A DNA stretch of 64,000 nt from Escherichia phage AV124: sequence record OR352954. One strand, given 5' to 3'. The stretch's first letter is position 1. Every line of letters begins with the position of its first letter. The position numbers were made by a program, and so were the translations under genes. Below the pieces are notes generated by a model. That model saw only the letters and a list, made by a program, of their open reading frames with translations. It ran no database searches and was not told the DNA's origin. Shown in pieces: positions 5,637 to 25,169 of the stretch.

Positions 5637-6314
5637 ATGAAAGAAGCTTATGATACTCTGAATGCTATGCTGCGCCCAACCTCTCTTGTTAAGTATGCGA
5701 AACATGTTGTAGATTGGAATTCTATCGCAGCCTCTGCAAAGGGTGAATTTACCCCATTGGAAAAGCAGTGGGAGTTTGTAGGAGAGGAGTTACAAGAAAC
5801 CGTTACAGCATTAATCGAAAATGACCGTAAGGAAGTTGTTGATGGAGCGTGTGATTTGTTTGTTGTGGCGTCGTATGCTTATTGGTTGAGTAATAACTAT
5901 TCGCTATCCTCAGATAAATATTTAACTTATAATCCTGACCTTAAGTTTTCTCCTGGTAAAGCTTTGGATGCTTTTGCGAATGATGACTATGAGGGGATGC
6001 TTAAATTGAGCACAGCTTTGTTGTTTGGTCTTGATATGCAATTGCATAAGAACATGCATAGCGTTCTGGAATCTAATGATTCTAAATATCCAACACTTAG
6101 TGAAATTCAGTCTTTGCATAAAGACCTTGACTTGGCAAAAGCCCTTGAGGCAGAATGCACCTGTATCGAACAGCGTAATGGTGGACGCTATGAAGGTGTT
6201 CATTTCTCCATTGTTGATGAGAATATGAAAGAAGAGCCACGTGTCGTATTCTTCGACAAAGGCGGTAAAATCATGAAGCCAGGGACTTTCAAAAAACCAA
6301 ACATTATTGTTTGA
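5637..6314 (+). CDS. hypothetical protein, possibly MazG-like NTP pyrophosphohydrolase
   Basis: EFVGEELQE ... DGACDLFVV resembles MazG EExxE/D motifs; weak. Confidence 0.3.
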   Translation: MKEAYDTLNAMLRPTSLVKYAKHVVDWNSIAASAKGEFTPLEKQWEFVGEELQETVTALIENDRKEVVDGACDLFVVASYAYWLSNNYSLSSDKYLTYNPDLKFSPGKALDAFANDDYEGMLKLSTALLFGLDMQLHKNMHSVLESNDSKYPTLSEIQSLHKDLDLAKALEAECTCIEQRNGGRYEGVHFSIVDENMKEEPRVVFFDKGGKIMKPGTFKKPNIIV

Positions 6315-6339
6315 CAATCGTATCGGGGTCTGTATAATG
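6312..6339 (+). promoter_or_regulatory. sigma70-type promoter (TTGACA-N16-TATAAT)
   Basis: Perfect consensus hexamers. Confidence 0.55.
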
Positions 6340-6594: not shown

Positions 6595-6622
6595 TTGACA
6601 AATAAAACTGAACGGTTATACT
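6595..6622 (+). promoter_or_regulatory. sigma70-type promoter (TTGACA-N16-TATACT)
   Basis: Consensus -35 and near-consensus -10, followed by AAAGGAG RBS and ATG 6654. Confidence 0.5.
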
Positions 6623-7213: not shown

Positions 7214-7377
7214 TGTTGCTAAATCTGAAGGCGGCAACTTGGGAAAAGTTGCAGCACTTGGCAAAGTCCAAAGGTAAGTCTGCGGCATCTTATGTTGCAA
7301 AAATCGTAGATGACCACGTTGATGAAAACGTAAAGACTGAGTATAAAATCAAAGAGGAGAAACAAACTGATGCTTAA
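7213..7377 (+). CDS. small protein, possibly ribbon-helix-helix-like
   Basis: 54-aa ORF not in track; KAATWEKLQHLAKSKGKSAASYVAKIV pattern; stop overlaps SPFH gene start. Confidence 0.3.
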   Translation: MLLNLKAATWEKLQHLAKSKGKSAASYVAKIVDDHVDENVKTEYKIKEEKQTDA

Positions 7378-8260
7378 GAATATCAAACGCGTAGTATTTG
7401 CTGGACTGATCGCTCTGGGTGCAATTGGTCTGACTGGTTGTGAACGTGCAACTGTTCCGGCGGGTTATGTTGGTGTTAAGGTTGACCTGTATGGTGATGA
7501 GAAAGGCGTTCAGCAGCAAGAAGTCGGCGTTGGTAAATATTGGTTGACCTGGAACGAAGAGATCTATCAGTTCCCGACGTTTAACCAGTTGAACAACTAC
7601 GAACAACCGTTCAACTTCCAGACCAAGGATTCCATGACGGTTACTGCAAAGATCGGTGTTGAGTATTACGTTGACCGCTCCAAGGTTACCAAGATCTTCC
7701 AGACCTACCGTAAAGGCGTCCAAGAGATTACAGATGTCAACATCCGTCAGAACATCTCTGATGCGCTGATCAAAGAAGCTGGTACGATGGATATTGGTAC
7801 ACTTGCTGGTGATGGTAAATCTCAGCTTCTAGACCGAGTGACCAAGACACTGAAGCAGAAACTTGACCCGGTAGGTATCGTTATTGTAAAACTATCTTAC
7901 ACTGATGACCTTGGTTATCCTCCTCAGGTAACTGCGTCCATCAATGCTAAGATCGAAGCTACTCAGAAAGCTCTGCTGCGTGAAAACGAAATCCAGCAGA
8001 CTAAAGCTGAAGCTCAGAAACAAATTGAAGCAGCTCGCGGTGAAGCAGAATCCCAGCGACTTCAAGCTCAGGGCCAGGCCGATGCTAAAGTAGCTCTGGC
8101 AAAAGGTGAAGCAGAATCCATCCAACTGCGTGGTGATGCTCTCCGTAAGAACCCTGAAATCATGCAACTGGAAGCGATCAACAAGTGGGACGGTAAAACC
8201 CCGACCATTATGGGTGGCAACGGTGCAGTACCTTTCGTAAATCTGCCAGCAGGTAAGTAA
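7370..8260 (+). CDS. SPFH/band-7 (prohibitin/HflKC-like) lipoprotein
   Basis: Signal peptide with lipobox LTGC; SPFH core then Ala/Gln/Glu-rich coiled coil. Confidence 0.7.
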   Translation: MLKNIKRVVFAGLIALGAIGLTGCERATVPAGYVGVKVDLYGDEKGVQQQEVGVGKYWLTWNEEIYQFPTFNQLNNYEQPFNFQTKDSMTVTAKIGVEYYVDRSKVTKIFQTYRKGVQEITDVNIRQNISDALIKEAGTMDIGTLAGDGKSQLLDRVTKTLKQKLDPVGIVIVKLSYTDDLGYPPQVTASINAKIEATQKALLRENEIQQTKAEAQKQIEAARGEAESQRLQAQGQADAKVALAKGEAESIQLRGDALRKNPEIMQLEAINKWDGKTPTIMGGNGAVPFVNLPAGK

Positions 8261-8263
8261 AGG

Positions 8264-8292
8264 TTGACAAAAGGCCCGGTGATTAGTATCAT
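8264..8292 (+). promoter_or_regulatory. sigma70-type promoter (TTGACA-N17-TATCAT)
   Basis: Hexamers upstream of AAAGGAG RBS and ATG 8323. Confidence 0.45.
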
Positions 8293-8322: not shown

Positions 8323-8517
8323 ATGATCCGCACAAAAATTCTTATCGCAGCATTGCTGCTATCTTCTCCGGTATTCGCGACTGTAAACACTCTTGATTTG
8401 GTTGATGAATACACCGACGGAAGTTCTAAAGTCTGCATCTACAGCGACGGTAATCGCACAGAATCTGTTCTGAAAGAAGGTGCTGGTTCTTGTCCAAGTA
8501 AGAAAACATTTCATTGA
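8323..8517 (+). CDS. small secreted protein
   Basis: N-terminal signal peptide MIRTKILIAALLLSSPVFA. Confidence 0.45.
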   Translation: MIRTKILIAALLLSSPVFATVNTLDLVDEYTDGSSKVCIYSDGNRTESVLKEGAGSCPSKKTFH

Positions 8518-8521
8518 GGCA

Positions 8522-9031
8522 ATGATGCGAGTAACTGATAAATACGTATTCTTCTTCACATACCGGGATATGTTCAGTAATCACTACCGCCAAGTTATTC
8601 CTATTCGTTGTGGTGGTTACGAGTTTTTTACTGTAGAACATTACATGATGTTCCAGAAGGCAATGCTCTTCGATGACAAAGAAATTGCTTCCCGCATCGC
8701 TACGGTTGATAACCCGAATGAGGCCAAAGCTCTTGGTCGTCAGGTAAAAGGTTTCGACAACAGCGTCTGGGAAGAGAATAGAATGGATATTGTGACTTCA
8801 GGCCTTGTATTGAAAATGAAGGCCAACAGGTCTGTTCTGGAAGCGGCGCTTGGGCATCGGGATGCTGGTCGTAAGTTTGTGGAAGCCTCCCCTTATGATG
8901 CCATCTGGGGTGTTAAATTAAACGAATATGACACACGTATCGATGACCCAACCAACTGGCGGGGTTTGAATCTTCTCGGTGAGTGCTGGGAACGAGCTAT
9001 TGATATTGTTGTTGCTGCAACGTGGAGGTGA
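8522..9031 (+). CDS. NADAR / YbiA-family protein (predicted ADP-ribose N-glycosidase fold)
   Basis: FSNH, TVEHYMMFQKAMLF, PNEAKALGR, DAIWG motifs colinear with YbiA family. Confidence 0.6.
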   Translation: MMRVTDKYVFFFTYRDMFSNHYRQVIPIRCGGYEFFTVEHYMMFQKAMLFDDKEIASRIATVDNPNEAKALGRQVKGFDNSVWEENRMDIVTSGLVLKMKANRSVLEAALGHRDAGRKFVEASPYDAIWGVKLNEYDTRIDDPTNWRGLNLLGECWERAIDIVVAATWR

Positions 9032-9470
9032 TTTGAAATTAGAGATTGAACTAGTTCCAAAGACCGCGTGGTTTACTAATCTCCGATCTCGTCTCCCCAA
9101 AGCCCAGTGGGATGTTGTCAGAAAGAAGTGTTATGAGAAGGCCAATTATCGATGTGAAATCTGCGGGGGTAAAGGAACAAAACACCCTGTTGAATGCCAT
9201 GAGAAGTGGAATTTCGGAGACGGTAAGATAACTCTGATAGGTCTAATCGCGCTATGTCCTTCCTGTCATGAAGTCAAGCATATTGGTTTGGCAGGGATCC
9301 GTGGGCGGGGTGAAATTGCCCTTCGTCACTTTATGAGAGTGAATGAAGTGAGTCGCCATGTGGCAGAGAAATATGTTAAGGAAGGGTTTGATTTGTATCA
9401 TGAACGAAGCAAGCGCGAAAAGTGGGAATTGGATGTCCGGTATTTGGACGAGTATTTGAGTAAAGATTGA
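8979..9470 (+). CDS. HNH endonuclease
   Basis: CEICGG ... HPVECHEKWNF ... CPSCHEVKH zinc-finger HNH motif; start uncertain. Confidence 0.6.
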   Translation: MSAGNELLILLLLQRGGDLKLEIELVPKTAWFTNLRSRLPKAQWDVVRKKCYEKANYRCEICGGKGTKHPVECHEKWNFGDGKITLIGLIALCPSCHEVKHIGLAGIRGRGEIALRHFMRVNEVSRHVAEKYVKEGFDLYHERSKREKWELDVRYLDEYLSKD

Positions 9471-10012
9471 GAGGGCTAGTGGGTGATCGTGAGATTGAAG
9501 ATTTAAGGAGATGCCTTACATACGACCAATCAACCGGAATGTTAAGATGGAACAGTCGTCCAAGAGAGGATTTCAAATTCGATTGGACGTTCGAAAATTG
9601 GAATTCGAAGTGGGCTGGTAAGGAAGTAGATAGCATCGGAAATACAGGTTATTATCGCTTCTCTCTTAACTACAAGAGATATCTTGCACACAGAGCTATT
9701 ATAGCCATGACATACGGTTATTGGCCTTCTGTAGTAGATCACCTAGATGGTGACAAGTTGAACAATAGACTTAGTAATCTAAGGGCAACCACCCAGGCTG
9801 TCAACATGATGAATAAGTCAGGCTACAAAAACAATACCTCTGGTGTTACAGGAGTACACAAGAGAAAGGATAATGGTAAATATTCTGCATCGGTAGTCTT
9901 AAATGGCAAGAGAAAACATCTTGGCACTTTTGACACTATTGAAGAAGCCATTCGTGTTAGAGAAGAAGAACTTTCCAAGAGGGGGTTCTCCTCCTCTCAT
10001 GGAAGTTTCTGA
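9467..10012 (+). CDS. HNH homing endonuclease with AP2 domain
   Basis: HR...VDHLDGDKLNNRLSNLR HNH_3 motif then AP2-like GVTGVHKRKDNGKYSASV...LGTFDTIEEA. Confidence 0.65.
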   Translation: MRGLVGDREIEDLRRCLTYDQSTGMLRWNSRPREDFKFDWTFENWNSKWAGKEVDSIGNTGYYRFSLNYKRYLAHRAIIAMTYGYWPSVVDHLDGDKLNNRLSNLRATTQAVNMMNKSGYKNNTSGVTGVHKRKDNGKYSASVVLNGKRKHLGTFDTIEEAIRVREEELSKRGFSSSHGSF

Positions 10013-10026
10013 AAATAGGGGGAATA

Positions 10027-11488: not shown

Positions 11489-12083
11489 TCAGAGTCTTAG
11501 CCACTGTGCTGTTGTCATATTCGATGATGGGGTGCCTGTTTACCGGGAAATGATCAGAACAGGCTCAAACAATAGCAAGAGCAAGAAAAACAAGGATGTT
11601 ATTTATTTTGACAATGTTCATGAACAGATTAGATTCATTGTTGGAAGAATCCTTACTCTGGCTGAAGAACATCGGATTGACAAATATGTTATGGAGGCCC
11701 TTAGCCTTAGTTCTATAGGCAGCGCCACTCGGGATTTGGCTGGTCTGTTCTACTGTATTGTGTACGGGTTGTATCAGTCAGCAATTTTGGGGTATCAAGC
11801 GATTCATACTGTAGCCCCTACCTCTGTGAAGGCTTATGCCAGAGCACTTTTGCCTGAATCAGAACGCACAGTTGTTAAAGAAAAGGTTGACAAAAAGACC
11901 GGGAAAAAGGTATACTCCACAGGTCAGGTTAAAATGGAAAAATCGCACATGGTGAGAGCCGTAGATTGTGATTTCCCAGGTTGGCTTGACGGAATGACTC
12001 TTGCCGCCGGAAAGGCTGACTACGCAGATGCATATTTGATAGGGAAGAAGTTCTTGGAGGATATATCCGTAGGAAAAGAATAA
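11469..12083 (+). CDS. hypothetical protein
   Basis: ORF with GGAGG RBS; function not recognisable. Confidence 0.4.
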   Translation: MKLMSVDQSLSHCAVVIFDDGVPVYREMIRTGSNNSKSKKNKDVIYFDNVHEQIRFIVGRILTLAEEHRIDKYVMEALSLSSIGSATRDLAGLFYCIVYGLYQSAILGYQAIHTVAPTSVKAYARALLPESERTVVKEKVDKKTGKKVYSTGQVKMEKSHMVRAVDCDFPGWLDGMTLAAGKADYADAYLIGKKFLEDISVGKE

Positions 12084-22620: not shown

Positions 22621-24699
22621 GTGAAGGTTGTTAAAAGAGATGGACGTGTTGAAGATTACTCGGCTGAGAAAGTGACACGAGCGGTGAAAGCCGCTCTGTT
22701 AGCCTCGGGTCTTGACCAGGAAGTGGCTGATGAGAAGGCCCGTGGAATTGCTCAGAGAACCTTCAGCCTCTTCATGGCGACCCCTGTACGAAGTGTGGTA
22801 GATTTTCACCGGGAGGTTGAAAACCTCCTGATGGAAGACCCTGATCTTCGTGACGCTGCTCGCTGTTACATAGAATACCGTCATGACCGTGACAACGCTC
22901 GTGAAGGAAAAGGAAAACTGTATGCAGACATCACTGGATTCTTGGATCAATCGGCTGAAGAGTTTACCCGCGAGAATGCCAATAAACCAAGTTCCATCGT
23001 AAACACGCACAGGGACCTCTTAGCGGGGATTTTGAGTAAGCATGTGGCATTGACCCAGATACTTCCCAAAAACCTCTCAGAATGGCATACAAGCGGCTAT
23101 GGGCACATCCATGACCTTGATTACCTGGTAAGCCCTCTGACGAACTGTTGCCTGGTGAACTATCGGGACATGTTAGAGAACGGGTTTAAGATCGGTAATG
23201 CCCAGATTGAGAAACCAAAATCAATCGGTGTGGCTACCACGGTCTTGACCCAAATCATCCAGGCGGTTGCCTCAAGTCAGTATGGTGGGCAGACCTGCGC
23301 CCATATTGACGAGGGACTCAAGCAATACGTCGAAATGAGCTTCATGAAGAACGTGAAGCAGTACCGAAGTCACCGCAATGCATACGGCCCGACCAACAAG
23401 TTGGTGTACGATGCGATGCAGACCCTGATCTACCAGGTGAATACACTGATGAGCGTCAACGGTCAATCGCCGTTCATTACCATCAGTTTGGGGCTTGACA
23501 CCTCCATGTTTGGGCGTATGATTACTGCAAACTACTTGAAAGTCCACAAAGAAGGGCTTGGGAAGGACAAAGTAACCCCGGTATTCCCGAAGGTTGTGTT
23601 CTTCCTGCAAGAAGGTGTGAACATGAACCCGGAAGACCCGAATTACGATCTGAAACAGTTGGCTATGGAATGTTGTGTAGAGCGAATCTACCCGGACTTC
23701 ATCTCTGTCCCACTGAATAAGGAAGTCACTGGGTCAGCGGAAGGCAAGGTCACGAGTATGGGTTGCCGATCATTCTTGTCTAAATTCACCACGGAAAATG
23801 GTGAAAAGTACGACGGAAGGTTCAACCTGGGTGTTGTGTCGGTGAATCTGCCGATGATTGCTGCCGAAGCGAAGCAGAAAGGCGAGAGATTCTTCCCACT
23901 GCTCCGTTATCACATGGACATGGCCTATGAAGCGCATATGGTTCGTGTGAAACGGCTGATGGATGTGAAGGCATCTCAAAACCCGACTCTGTTCATGGAA
24001 GGAGCGCTGGCCCGGTTGAGACCTGATGAGCCGATCAGTAAGCTGTTCTTCAACGGTTATGCATCGATCAGCATCGGATATGTCGGCCTGGCGGAGGCTG
24101 TGGACATCCTCAACGGCAAAGAGGACAAGGAATATGCTATGGGAATCCTCGGGTACATGAAACTGGTGTGCGATGAGTACAAAGCCATGACGAACCTGTC
24201 TTTCAGCCTTTATGGGACGCCTGCGGAGAGCTTGTGCTACCGCTTTGCCACCAAACTGAAAGAAAAGTTCCCTAACTTCATAGAGAGGGATTACCTGACG
24301 AACTCTTTCCACCAACCTGTCTGGGTGCACAGCGATCCTTTCAGTAAGTGGGACTACGAATCGGGCTTTGCAAACATCAGTAATGGTGGAAACATTGGAT
24401 ATGTGGAAACTGCCAATTTGCGTGACAACTTGCTGGCTCTTGAATCCCTGATCGATTATGGGTACAAGAAGATTCCTTACTTCGGAATCAATCAGCCTGT
24501 GGATCAGTGTCTTAAATGCGGTCACAGTGGTGAGTTTACCGCCACGGCGAAGGGTTTTGAATGCCCGGCCTGCGGAAACCACGAAGAGGGGACGCTTTCG
24601 GTTATCCGTCGTGTATCTGGGTATTTATCTGCACCCAATTCTCGACCTTATAACAAAGGGAAGATGCAGGAAGTGGTTCAGCGGGAGAAACATCAGTGA
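22621..24699 (+). CDS. nrdD: anaerobic ribonucleoside-triphosphate reductase
   Basis: Glycyl-radical motif RVSGY and C-terminal CxxC...CxxC zinc ribbon; GTG start. Confidence 0.85.
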   Translation: MKVVKRDGRVEDYSAEKVTRAVKAALLASGLDQEVADEKARGIAQRTFSLFMATPVRSVVDFHREVENLLMEDPDLRDAARCYIEYRHDRDNAREGKGKLYADITGFLDQSAEEFTRENANKPSSIVNTHRDLLAGILSKHVALTQILPKNLSEWHTSGYGHIHDLDYLVSPLTNCCLVNYRDMLENGFKIGNAQIEKPKSIGVATTVLTQIIQAVASSQYGGQTCAHIDEGLKQYVEMSFMKNVKQYRSHRNAYGPTNKLVYDAMQTLIYQVNTLMSVNGQSPFITISLGLDTSMFGRMITANYLKVHKEGLGKDKVTPVFPKVVFFLQEGVNMNPEDPNYDLKQLAMECCVERIYPDFISVPLNKEVTGSAEGKVTSMGCRSFLSKFTTENGEKYDGRFNLGVVSVNLPMIAAEAKQKGERFFPLLRYHMDMAYEAHMVRVKRLMDVKASQNPTLFMEGALARLRPDEPISKLFFNGYASISIGYVGLAEAVDILNGKEDKEYAMGILGYMKLVCDEYKAMTNLSFSLYGTPAESLCYRFATKLKEKFPNFIERDYLTNSFHQPVWVHSDPFSKWDYESGFANISNGGNIGYVETANLRDNLLALESLIDYGYKKIPYFGINQPVDQCLKCGHSGEFTATAKGFECPACGNHEEGTLSVIRRVSGYLSAPNSRPYNKGKMQEVVQREKHQ

Positions 24700-25169
24700 A
24701 CTTCTGTGGATATGAACCCGTAGATTTAGTGAATGGAGAGGGAGTTCGCTGCTCCCTCTGGGTCAGCGGGTGTAGCCACGGTTGCCGTGGATGTTTTAAC
24801 CAGAAAGCTTGGTCATACACCTACGGTAATGAGTTTACAGCAGCACAATTGGAGAGGCTCATTGCTGATCTCGGCCGCCCCTTCGTGAAAGGGCTGTCCG
24901 TTCTGGGAGGGGAGCCGCTTGACCCGCAAAATGTTGATTCTGTTATCGAAATCCTGACTTCCGTCAGAGATTTTTACGGTGACAAGAAGGATATCATGTT
25001 GTGGACTGGTTACAAATTCAGCGAAGTTCCGGAACAAGTGAAGAATCTGGTTGACATAGTGATGGACGGCAAGTATGATGAATGCAATCCTACTACAAAA
25101 CGGTTCAGAGGATCGGACAACCAGAAAATGTGGACAAAACAAAACGGTAAGTGGATAGAGGAGAAATGA
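24696..25169 (+). CDS. nrdG: anaerobic RNR activating radical-SAM protein
   Basis: CSHGCRGC (Cx3Cx2C); ATGA overlap with nrdD. Confidence 0.8.
   Translation: MNFCGYEPVDLVNGEGVRCSLWVSGCSHGCRGCFNQKAWSYTYGNEFTAAQLERLIADLGRPFVKGLSVLGGEPLDPQNVDSVIEILTSVRDFYGDKKDIMLWTGYKFSEVPEQVKNLVDIVMDGKYDECNPTTKRFRGSDNQKMWTKQNGKWIEEK

Follow-up and report, generated by a model that had tools for sequence, protein, structure and literature searches.

Identification of the NADAR Gene

The 64,000-nucleotide stretch of Escherichia phage AV124 analyzed in this work (record OR352954; hereafter, the window) carries an open reading frame on the + strand, ending in the TGA codon at 9029-9031, that raised the question of whether a phage protein of the YbiA/NADAR family might reverse an ADP-ribosylation-based defense of the host. 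The translation of this frame contains, in colinear order, the four motifs on which the first-pass annotation had based a match to the YbiA/NADAR core, i.e., FSNH (residues 17-20), TVEHYMMFQKAMLF (residues 36-49), PNEAKALGR (residues 64-72), and DAIWG (residues 125-129). This match is real and lies far beyond chance, with an E-value of 9.4e-35 and 120.7 bits against the Pfam NADAR profile (PF08719; gathering cut-off 35.1 bits), covering model positions 11-155 of 163. The protein also matches PHROG 1017 (E = 1.3e-52), and a phmmer search against the PDB returned the NADAR structure 8bau (E = 2e-15) and E. coli YbiA (2b3w; E = 2e-4).

The gene had been placed at 8522-9031. The stop at 9031 on the + strand stands, but the start has to be moved, most likely to the adjacent ATG at 8525. 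A Shine-Dalgarno-like GAGG is seen in the sequence at 8516-8519 (+), 5 nt before the ATG at 8525 and 2 nt before the second possible ATG at 8522. In addition, the aligned homologues all open with MR(V/I)TDKY, and the RefSeq protein KB57_119 has a length of 168 aa. Taken together, the spacing of the GAGG, the N-termini of the homologues, and the length of KB57_119 make 8525 the most likely translation start, yielding a gene at 8525-9031 (+) of 168 codons plus the stop. A GTG start at 8480 was discarded, as it is merely the longest possible frame in a mechanical list of open reading frames. The gene is intact and its product is a stand-alone NADAR protein, an assignment that draws on the Pfam profile, the AlphaFold2 model, the Foldseek search, and the conserved residues.

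Fold and Active Site

An AlphaFold2 model of the protein, built with an alignment of 53 homologues as input, reached a mean pLDDT of 97.4 and a pTM of 0.91 and has the alpha+beta architecture of NADAR proteins. When this model was compared with the PDB by Foldseek, the only significant matches were 8bau, a NADAR protein with ADP-ribose (TM 0.81), and YbiA 2b3w (TM 0.76).

The 8bau structure corresponds to the NADAR of Phytophthora nicotianae (PnNADAR), in which ADP-ribose is held by E43, K50, R79, W89, R93, E125, D130, and W133 (Schuller et al., PMC11543638). Another PnNADAR residue, K75, has an equivalent in the DarT1-linked NADAR of E. coli C7 that is needed for rescue from DarT1 (Schuller et al., PMC11543638). 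In alignments with PnNADAR, the window protein is identical at all nine of these positions (E38, K45, R72, W82, R86, E120, D125, and W128 for the contacts with ADP-ribose, and K68). E38, K45, and R72 are invariant in the 53 homologues, and the remaining listed residues are conserved in at least 90% of the sequences. The catalytic Glu and the phosphate-binding Lys are therefore kept, E38/K45 being equivalent to E43/K50 of PnNADAR, E88/K95 of E. coli C7, and E36/K43 of T4. The AdfN allele of phage RB69 is crippled by a truncation of its C-terminal helix; in the AlphaFold2 model of the window protein this helix is present, at residues 150-167. On these grounds, the protein is predicted to be catalytically intact.

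The first-pass annotation had stated that a missing profile match or a loss of conserved catalytic residues would speak against the family assignment. The PF08719 match, the fold, and the ADP-ribose-contacting and catalytic residues are all present, and thus the assignment to the YbiA/NADAR family is confirmed by profile, fold, and conserved residues.

Operon Structure and Putative Promoter

The NADAR gene is the second gene of an operon that encodes a 64-aa protein, the NADAR protein, a 145-aa HNH protein, an extra HNH_3-AP2 homing endonuclease, and a 5'-3' exonuclease, in this order. The operon is headed by a sigma-70-like promoter (TTGACA-17-TATCAT, 11 of 12 consensus positions) at 8264-8292 (+), which lies inside the 62-bp gap that follows an SPFH lipoprotein gene, and the equivalent slot of phage rV5 carries an annotated sigma-70 promoter, P90. 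Nine near-consensus sigma-70 sites (at least 11 of 12) were found in the window, compared with 1.5 +/- 1.2 in shuffled sequences; examples are those at 6311-6338, 6595-6622, 8264-8292, 11887-11916, and 49921-49892, and several sites lie in short gaps just 5' of genes. This enrichment suggests that the phage relies strongly on the host polymerase, in line with the annotation of rV5. Given the near-consensus promoter at the head of the operon, early transcription of the NADAR gene by the host polymerase from the putative promoter at 8264-8292 is plausible.

The first gene of the operon (8323-8517, +) encodes the 64-aa protein, which has an N-terminal signal-peptide-like segment and matches PHROG 4641 (E = 1.3e-31), whose function label is unknown. 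In rV5 the slot of this gene is occupied by ORF90, encoding a small membrane protein, and the HNH gene follows directly. The SPFH/Band-7 lipoprotein gene (7370-8260, +; Pfam E = 1.5e-21) encodes the lipobox LTGC, and its product and the 64-aa protein, both encoded just upstream of the NADAR gene, are envelope-directed phage proteins.

Downstream of the NADAR gene, the 145-aa HNH protein (9033-9470, +) is translated from a TTG start, with a GGAGG Shine-Dalgarno sequence at 9024-9028, inside the 3' end of the NADAR gene. It matches the PHROG 5200 HNH endonucleases (E = 4e-73), contains the CxxC...H motifs, and is 88% identical to its counterpart in Salmonella phage SSE121 and 49% identical to ORF91 of rV5. 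Since its size and position are kept across the Vequintavirinae, this protein looks like a core protein rather than a mobile homing endonuclease. We also considered whether NADAR and the 145-aa HNH protein form a conserved functional pair, an idea that was rejected because rV5 keeps the HNH protein while lacking NADAR. In phage A73, the homologue of the 145-aa HNH protein is A73_191 and not A73_190, the gene beside NADAR.

Distribution and Relatives

The DNA of the window shows 93-97% nucleotide identity to that of Mydovirus (Vequintavirinae) phages of Klebsiella, such as KB57, NDO71, and KpS11. The counterpart in KB57 shares 99% identity with the window protein and already bears the name "NADAR family protein" in both RefSeq and UniRef. 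Homologues were found in 719 phage records, mostly of large myoviruses of Staphylococcus, Escherichia, Listeria, Enterococcus, and Bacillus, a spread that agrees with the survey by Iyer et al. Within the subfamily, NADAR is present in Seunavirus (Salmonella phage SSE121) with the same gene order as in the window. In contrast, a tblastn search of the complete rV5 genome did not find it (best E = 1.4), whereas the same search recovered Sir2 (E = 8e-91) and the HNH gene (E = 6e-48). The shared position of NADAR in Mydovirus and Seunavirus, and its absence from rV5 with the flanking genes kept, indicate that it is an accessory gene within the subfamily, a distribution that is typically that of counter-defense genes. 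The composition profile revealed no GC anomaly of the NADAR gene and thus gives no compositional sign of a recent acquisition.

In a crude neighbor-joining tree without support values, the window clade clusters with the Bas60/Phapecoctavirus clade, PnNADAR, and many stand-alone bacterial NADARs, whereas E. coli YbiA (26% identity) and T4 gp30.3 (20% identity) fall outside this cluster. This clustering agrees with the published grouping of the phage protein AdfN-Bas60 with bacterial NADARs that are neither DarT-linked nor YbiA (Johannesman et al., 2025, PMC11825919). A search with T4 gp30.3 returned only proteins of T4-like phages (PF08010).

The bacterial relatives (40-48% identity) are likewise stand-alone, and no ART toxin gene was found beside them in the neighborhoods examined, which therefore give no clue to the target of NADAR. 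Among the named bacterial homologues, the nearest one (48% identity) is from Vibrio; its gene closes a series of small ORFs without annotation, an arrangement that recalls a cassette array or a prophage remnant, and no ART gene is nearby. Both the window protein (E = 6e-29) and AdfN-Bas60 (E = 2e-34) match PDC-M42C, a candidate-defense component of PADLOC, showing that related NADARs also occur inside candidate bacterial defense systems. The NCBIfam model DS32_2, "NADAR family anti-phage protein", gave a weak match for both proteins.

The Sir2 Block and Other NAD-Related Genes

It had also been proposed that the NADAR gene and a Sir2-like gene point to an NAD/ADP-ribose theme in this region. 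A Sir2-like gene does exist at 1894-2670 (+; Pfam E = 3e-22, PHROG E = 2e-110), and it belongs to a block that encodes, in this order, an Rnl1-type RNA ligase (163-1125, +), a cREC_REC domain protein (1122-1466, +), an AAA_33 (P-loop) kinase (1476-1883, +), Sir2, a DNA ligase, and a MazG/PRA-PH-like pyrophosphatase (5637-6314, +). This block matches the sirtuin-centered neighborhood of "phage V5 and Proteus phage Mydo", for which a NAD-using RNA-repair system has been predicted (Iyer et al., 2022). Phage rV5 keeps Rnl1-cREC-Sir2 and has no NADAR, which makes the Sir2 block separable from NADAR. The Sir2 of rV5 is ORF84; ORF85 was ruled out as the Sir2 gene.

Beyond the window, the KB57 genome carries at 68995-71536, about 11 kb upstream of NADAR and on the opposite strand, a Prs-like and Nampt-like pair of genes. 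The counter-defense pathway NARP1 reconstitutes NAD+ by means of Adps and Namat, and the KB57 pair appears to fit the description of NARP1. Several groups of phages with NADAR (Staphylococcus, Listeria, Justusliebigvirus, and Klebsiella) have Nampt-like genes as well. With the Sir2 block, the Prs-like/Nampt-like pair, and NADAR, a NAD/ADP-ribose gene set does exist in the lineage. The proposed theme is thus sustained as a list of genes, but not as a functional link between Sir2 and NADAR, since Sir2 belongs to a predicted RNA-repair block and is found in rV5 without NADAR. A mechanistic link of NADAR to the Sir2 or NARP1-like genes is only a possibility.

Comparison With Characterized NADAR Proteins

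Guanine-linked ADP-ribose, in DNA as well as in RNA, is a substrate of all NADAR subtypes tested in vitro, and some NADARs also clear ADP-ribose from cytidine. Thymidine-ADP-ribose and ADP-ribose at phosphate ends, whether of RNA or DNA, are removed by no NADAR tested. Phage NADARs, designated "AdfN" (anti-DarT factor NADAR), defeat DarTG1 by de-ADP-ribosylating phage DNA (Johannesman et al., 2025, PMC11825919). Of the three that were tested, AdfN-Bas60 neutralized DarT1 alone, and it restored the plating of RB69, T5, and Bas25, three phages unrelated to one another, on DarTG1 (PMC11825919). It originates from the phi92-like phages Bas60-62, which Johannesman et al. (PMC11825919) classed in the Vequintavirinae and which are now Stephanstirmvirinae in GenBank. 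We traced AdfN-Bas60, via JLBYU50, to bas60_0111 of Escherichia phage PaulScherrer (Justusliebigvirus).

The window protein shares 41% identity with AdfN-Bas60 over the full length (E = 5e-37). Both are stand-alone phage NADARs with a length of about 170-180 aa, and the phages that encode them are large enterobacterial myoviruses akin to the Vequintavirinae. The two proteins have the same catalytic residues, and both match TIGR02464 and PDC-M42C of PADLOC. They differ in their genomic slot, as the gene of AdfN-Bas60 follows those of an FtsH-like protease and a large hypothetical protein, whereas the window gene lies between the signal-peptide ORF and the HNH gene. They also differ in two insertions, one after the first strands and the other before the AKxLGR motif, that are found in AdfN-Bas60 but not in the window protein. 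The window gene has no ART gene beside it, and the annotation of the regions of KB57 that were examined (about 69-143 kb) lists none either. It is, as expected for an AdfN orphan, a phage-encoded NADAR with no cognate toxin gene adjoining.

The best structural match is PnNADAR (TM 0.81, 33% identity), which has the same residue at every ADP-ribose contact, including the Glu-type equivalent of E125; however, PnNADAR and the stand-alone bacterial NADARs are cellular proteins, whereas the window copy is viral. DarG1, the NADAR antitoxin of DarTG1, and T4 gp30.3 belong to the same superfamily, and the window protein would share with them the chemistry of guanine-ADP-ribose hydrolysis. It differs from DarG1 in consisting of the NADAR domain only (168 aa), without an adjacent DarT1 gene or an N-terminal extension. 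At the third acidic position, the window protein has Glu (E120), DarG1 has Asp, and the T4 type has His. T4 gp30.3 (AdfN-T4) belongs to a different Pfam family, PF08010, which gave no match to the window protein in the Pfam search, and the two proteins share only 20% identity. Lastly, E. coli YbiA (2b3w), a riboflavin-intermediate N-glycosidase, has in common with the window protein the fold (TM 0.76), the E/K catalytic residues, and the Glu-type acidic residue, but it is only 26% identical, lies outside the cluster, and is encoded in the LexA-regulated neighborhood dinG/ybiB/rhlE.

Proposed Function and Alternatives

We consider it fairly probable that the window protein is a glycohydrolase of the AdfN type, which would free phage nucleic acid of base-linked ADP-ribose, with guanine as the first target, and would thus counter DarT1-type defenses. 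A guanine-ADP-ribose glycohydrolase of this type is the best explanation of the data, since AdfN-Bas60, 41% identical, neutralizes DarT1 and rescues phages from DarTG1. According to this proposal, the protein would be produced early in infection from the sigma-70-type promoter recognized by the host RNA polymerase. Host ADP-ribosyltransferases, DarT1-type or pierisin-like, would put ADP-ribose on the phage nucleic acid, and NADAR would hydrolyze the N-glycosidic bond that joins ADP-ribose to the exocyclic N2 of guanine in DNA, with RNA, and perhaps cytosine adducts, as possible further substrates. Removal of the adducts would restore phage replication, a role of the "orphan antitoxin" class. 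The reversal of host ADP-ribosylation defense advanced by the first-pass annotation is supported, as it has been shown experimentally for phage NADARs including AdfN-Bas60, and we infer from these homologues both the substrate and the counter-defense role of the window protein. Nevertheless, 41% identity is no guarantee of in vivo specificity, as YbiA and T4 gp30.3 illustrate: YbiA clears guanine-ADP-ribose in vitro but gives no rescue of DarT1 toxicity in cells, and T4 gp30.3 is active in vitro yet does not rescue DarT1 toxicity outside its own context.

The presence of the Rnl1-cREC-kinase-Sir2-MazG block 6 kb upstream in the window, together with the Prs-like and Nampt-like pair of KB57 and the Nampt-like genes of several NADAR-carrying phage groups, would fit an enzyme acting on small soluble ADP-ribose derivatives, either immune signals or by-products of the Sir2 RNA-repair module (ADPr>P and similar); as an extension, the freed ADP-ribose might feed the NARP1-like NAD+ rebuilding pair found upstream in relatives. 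We regard action on such soluble compounds as unlikely. The module does not need NADAR, as rV5 maintains Rnl1-cREC-Sir2 without any, phosphate-linked ADP-ribose on RNA or DNA ends is not processed by NADARs, and the co-occurrence with Nampt is seen at the genus level only, both traits following large myoviruses. To our knowledge, degradation of an immune signal has been shown for no NADAR. A further reading is that the NADAR of Mydovirus and Seunavirus is not a DarT1 antidote but has another substrate, such as cytosine- or RNA-linked ADP-ribose produced by a hitherto undescribed ADP-ribosylating defense of Klebsiella, or an ADP-ribose-derived immune signal; the freed ADP-ribose might then pass to Adps/Namat-like NAD+ rebuilding. 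This possibility seems to us quite unlikely; if the channeling into the NARP1-like pair were true, the removal of adducts would be linked to the recovery of NAD+.

Two other functions appear less probable still. The annotation of homologues in some phage records and in JGI ("ribA/ribD-fused", "GTP cyclohydrolase II") suggests a YbiA-type metabolic N-glycosidase acting on riboflavin-pathway intermediates or similar ribosylamine metabolites. In fact, the window protein reaches 125 bits with the NCBIfam model TIGR02464, "riboflavin biosynthesis intermediates N-glycosidase" (cut-off 73.7), and its third acidic residue is of the Glu type, by which the YbiA clade is defined. However, TIGR02464 does not discriminate between functions, since the validated AdfN-Bas60 passes it as well, with 109 bits. 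Moreover, no riboflavin gene turned up in the scan of window ORFs or in those annotated regions of KB57 that were examined, E. coli YbiA is placed outside the cluster in the neighbor-joining tree without support values, and the published tree puts such phage NADARs with non-YbiA bacterial NADARs, so that this metabolic role is very unlikely. It is also highly improbable that the protein acts mainly as an ADP-ribose-binding inhibitor of an ADP-ribose-dependent defense effector, with no need of catalysis, as has been reported of a phage NADAR that counters Retron-Eco1. The Retron-Eco1 inhibitor U56 reportedly binds ADP-ribose, and the ADP-ribose-binding pocket of the window protein is fully conserved. 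Nonetheless, the catalytic residues E38, K45, and E120 are strictly conserved in the 53 homologues, which argues that catalysis is under selection.

Implications

The family, the chemistry, and the counter-defense role were all known before, as they have been published for relatives, and the window protein is an ordinary further member of a recently characterized class. Since the KB57 protein is, besides, already named in RefSeq, no new question is opened. If the removal of base-linked ADP-ribose proposed above is correct, Klebsiella phages of the genus Mydovirus would carry an enzymatic antidote to DNA ADP-ribosylating defenses such as DarTG1. These Klebsiella phages are a group used in phage-therapy work, and such an antidote would bear on the prediction of host range and on the choice of phages. 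It would also add one more lineage to the published picture, in which NADARs have been repeatedly acquired by phages.

Other Observations in the Window

Compared with KB57, the window contains a 541-bp insertion at 9484-10024, located exactly between the genes of the 145-aa HNH protein and the exonuclease and having a slightly lower GC content (about 0.40-0.41). The corresponding ORF (9467-10012, +) encodes the HNH_3 and AP2 homing endonuclease and looks like a free-standing mobile endonuclease. Farther downstream, NrdD (22621-24699, +; Pfam NRDD E = 5e-162) and its activase NrdG (24696-25169, +) constitute an anaerobic ribonucleotide reductase. Both genes are missing from the KB57 annotation at the corresponding place and both are present in rV5, indicating that they form a variable module within the genus.
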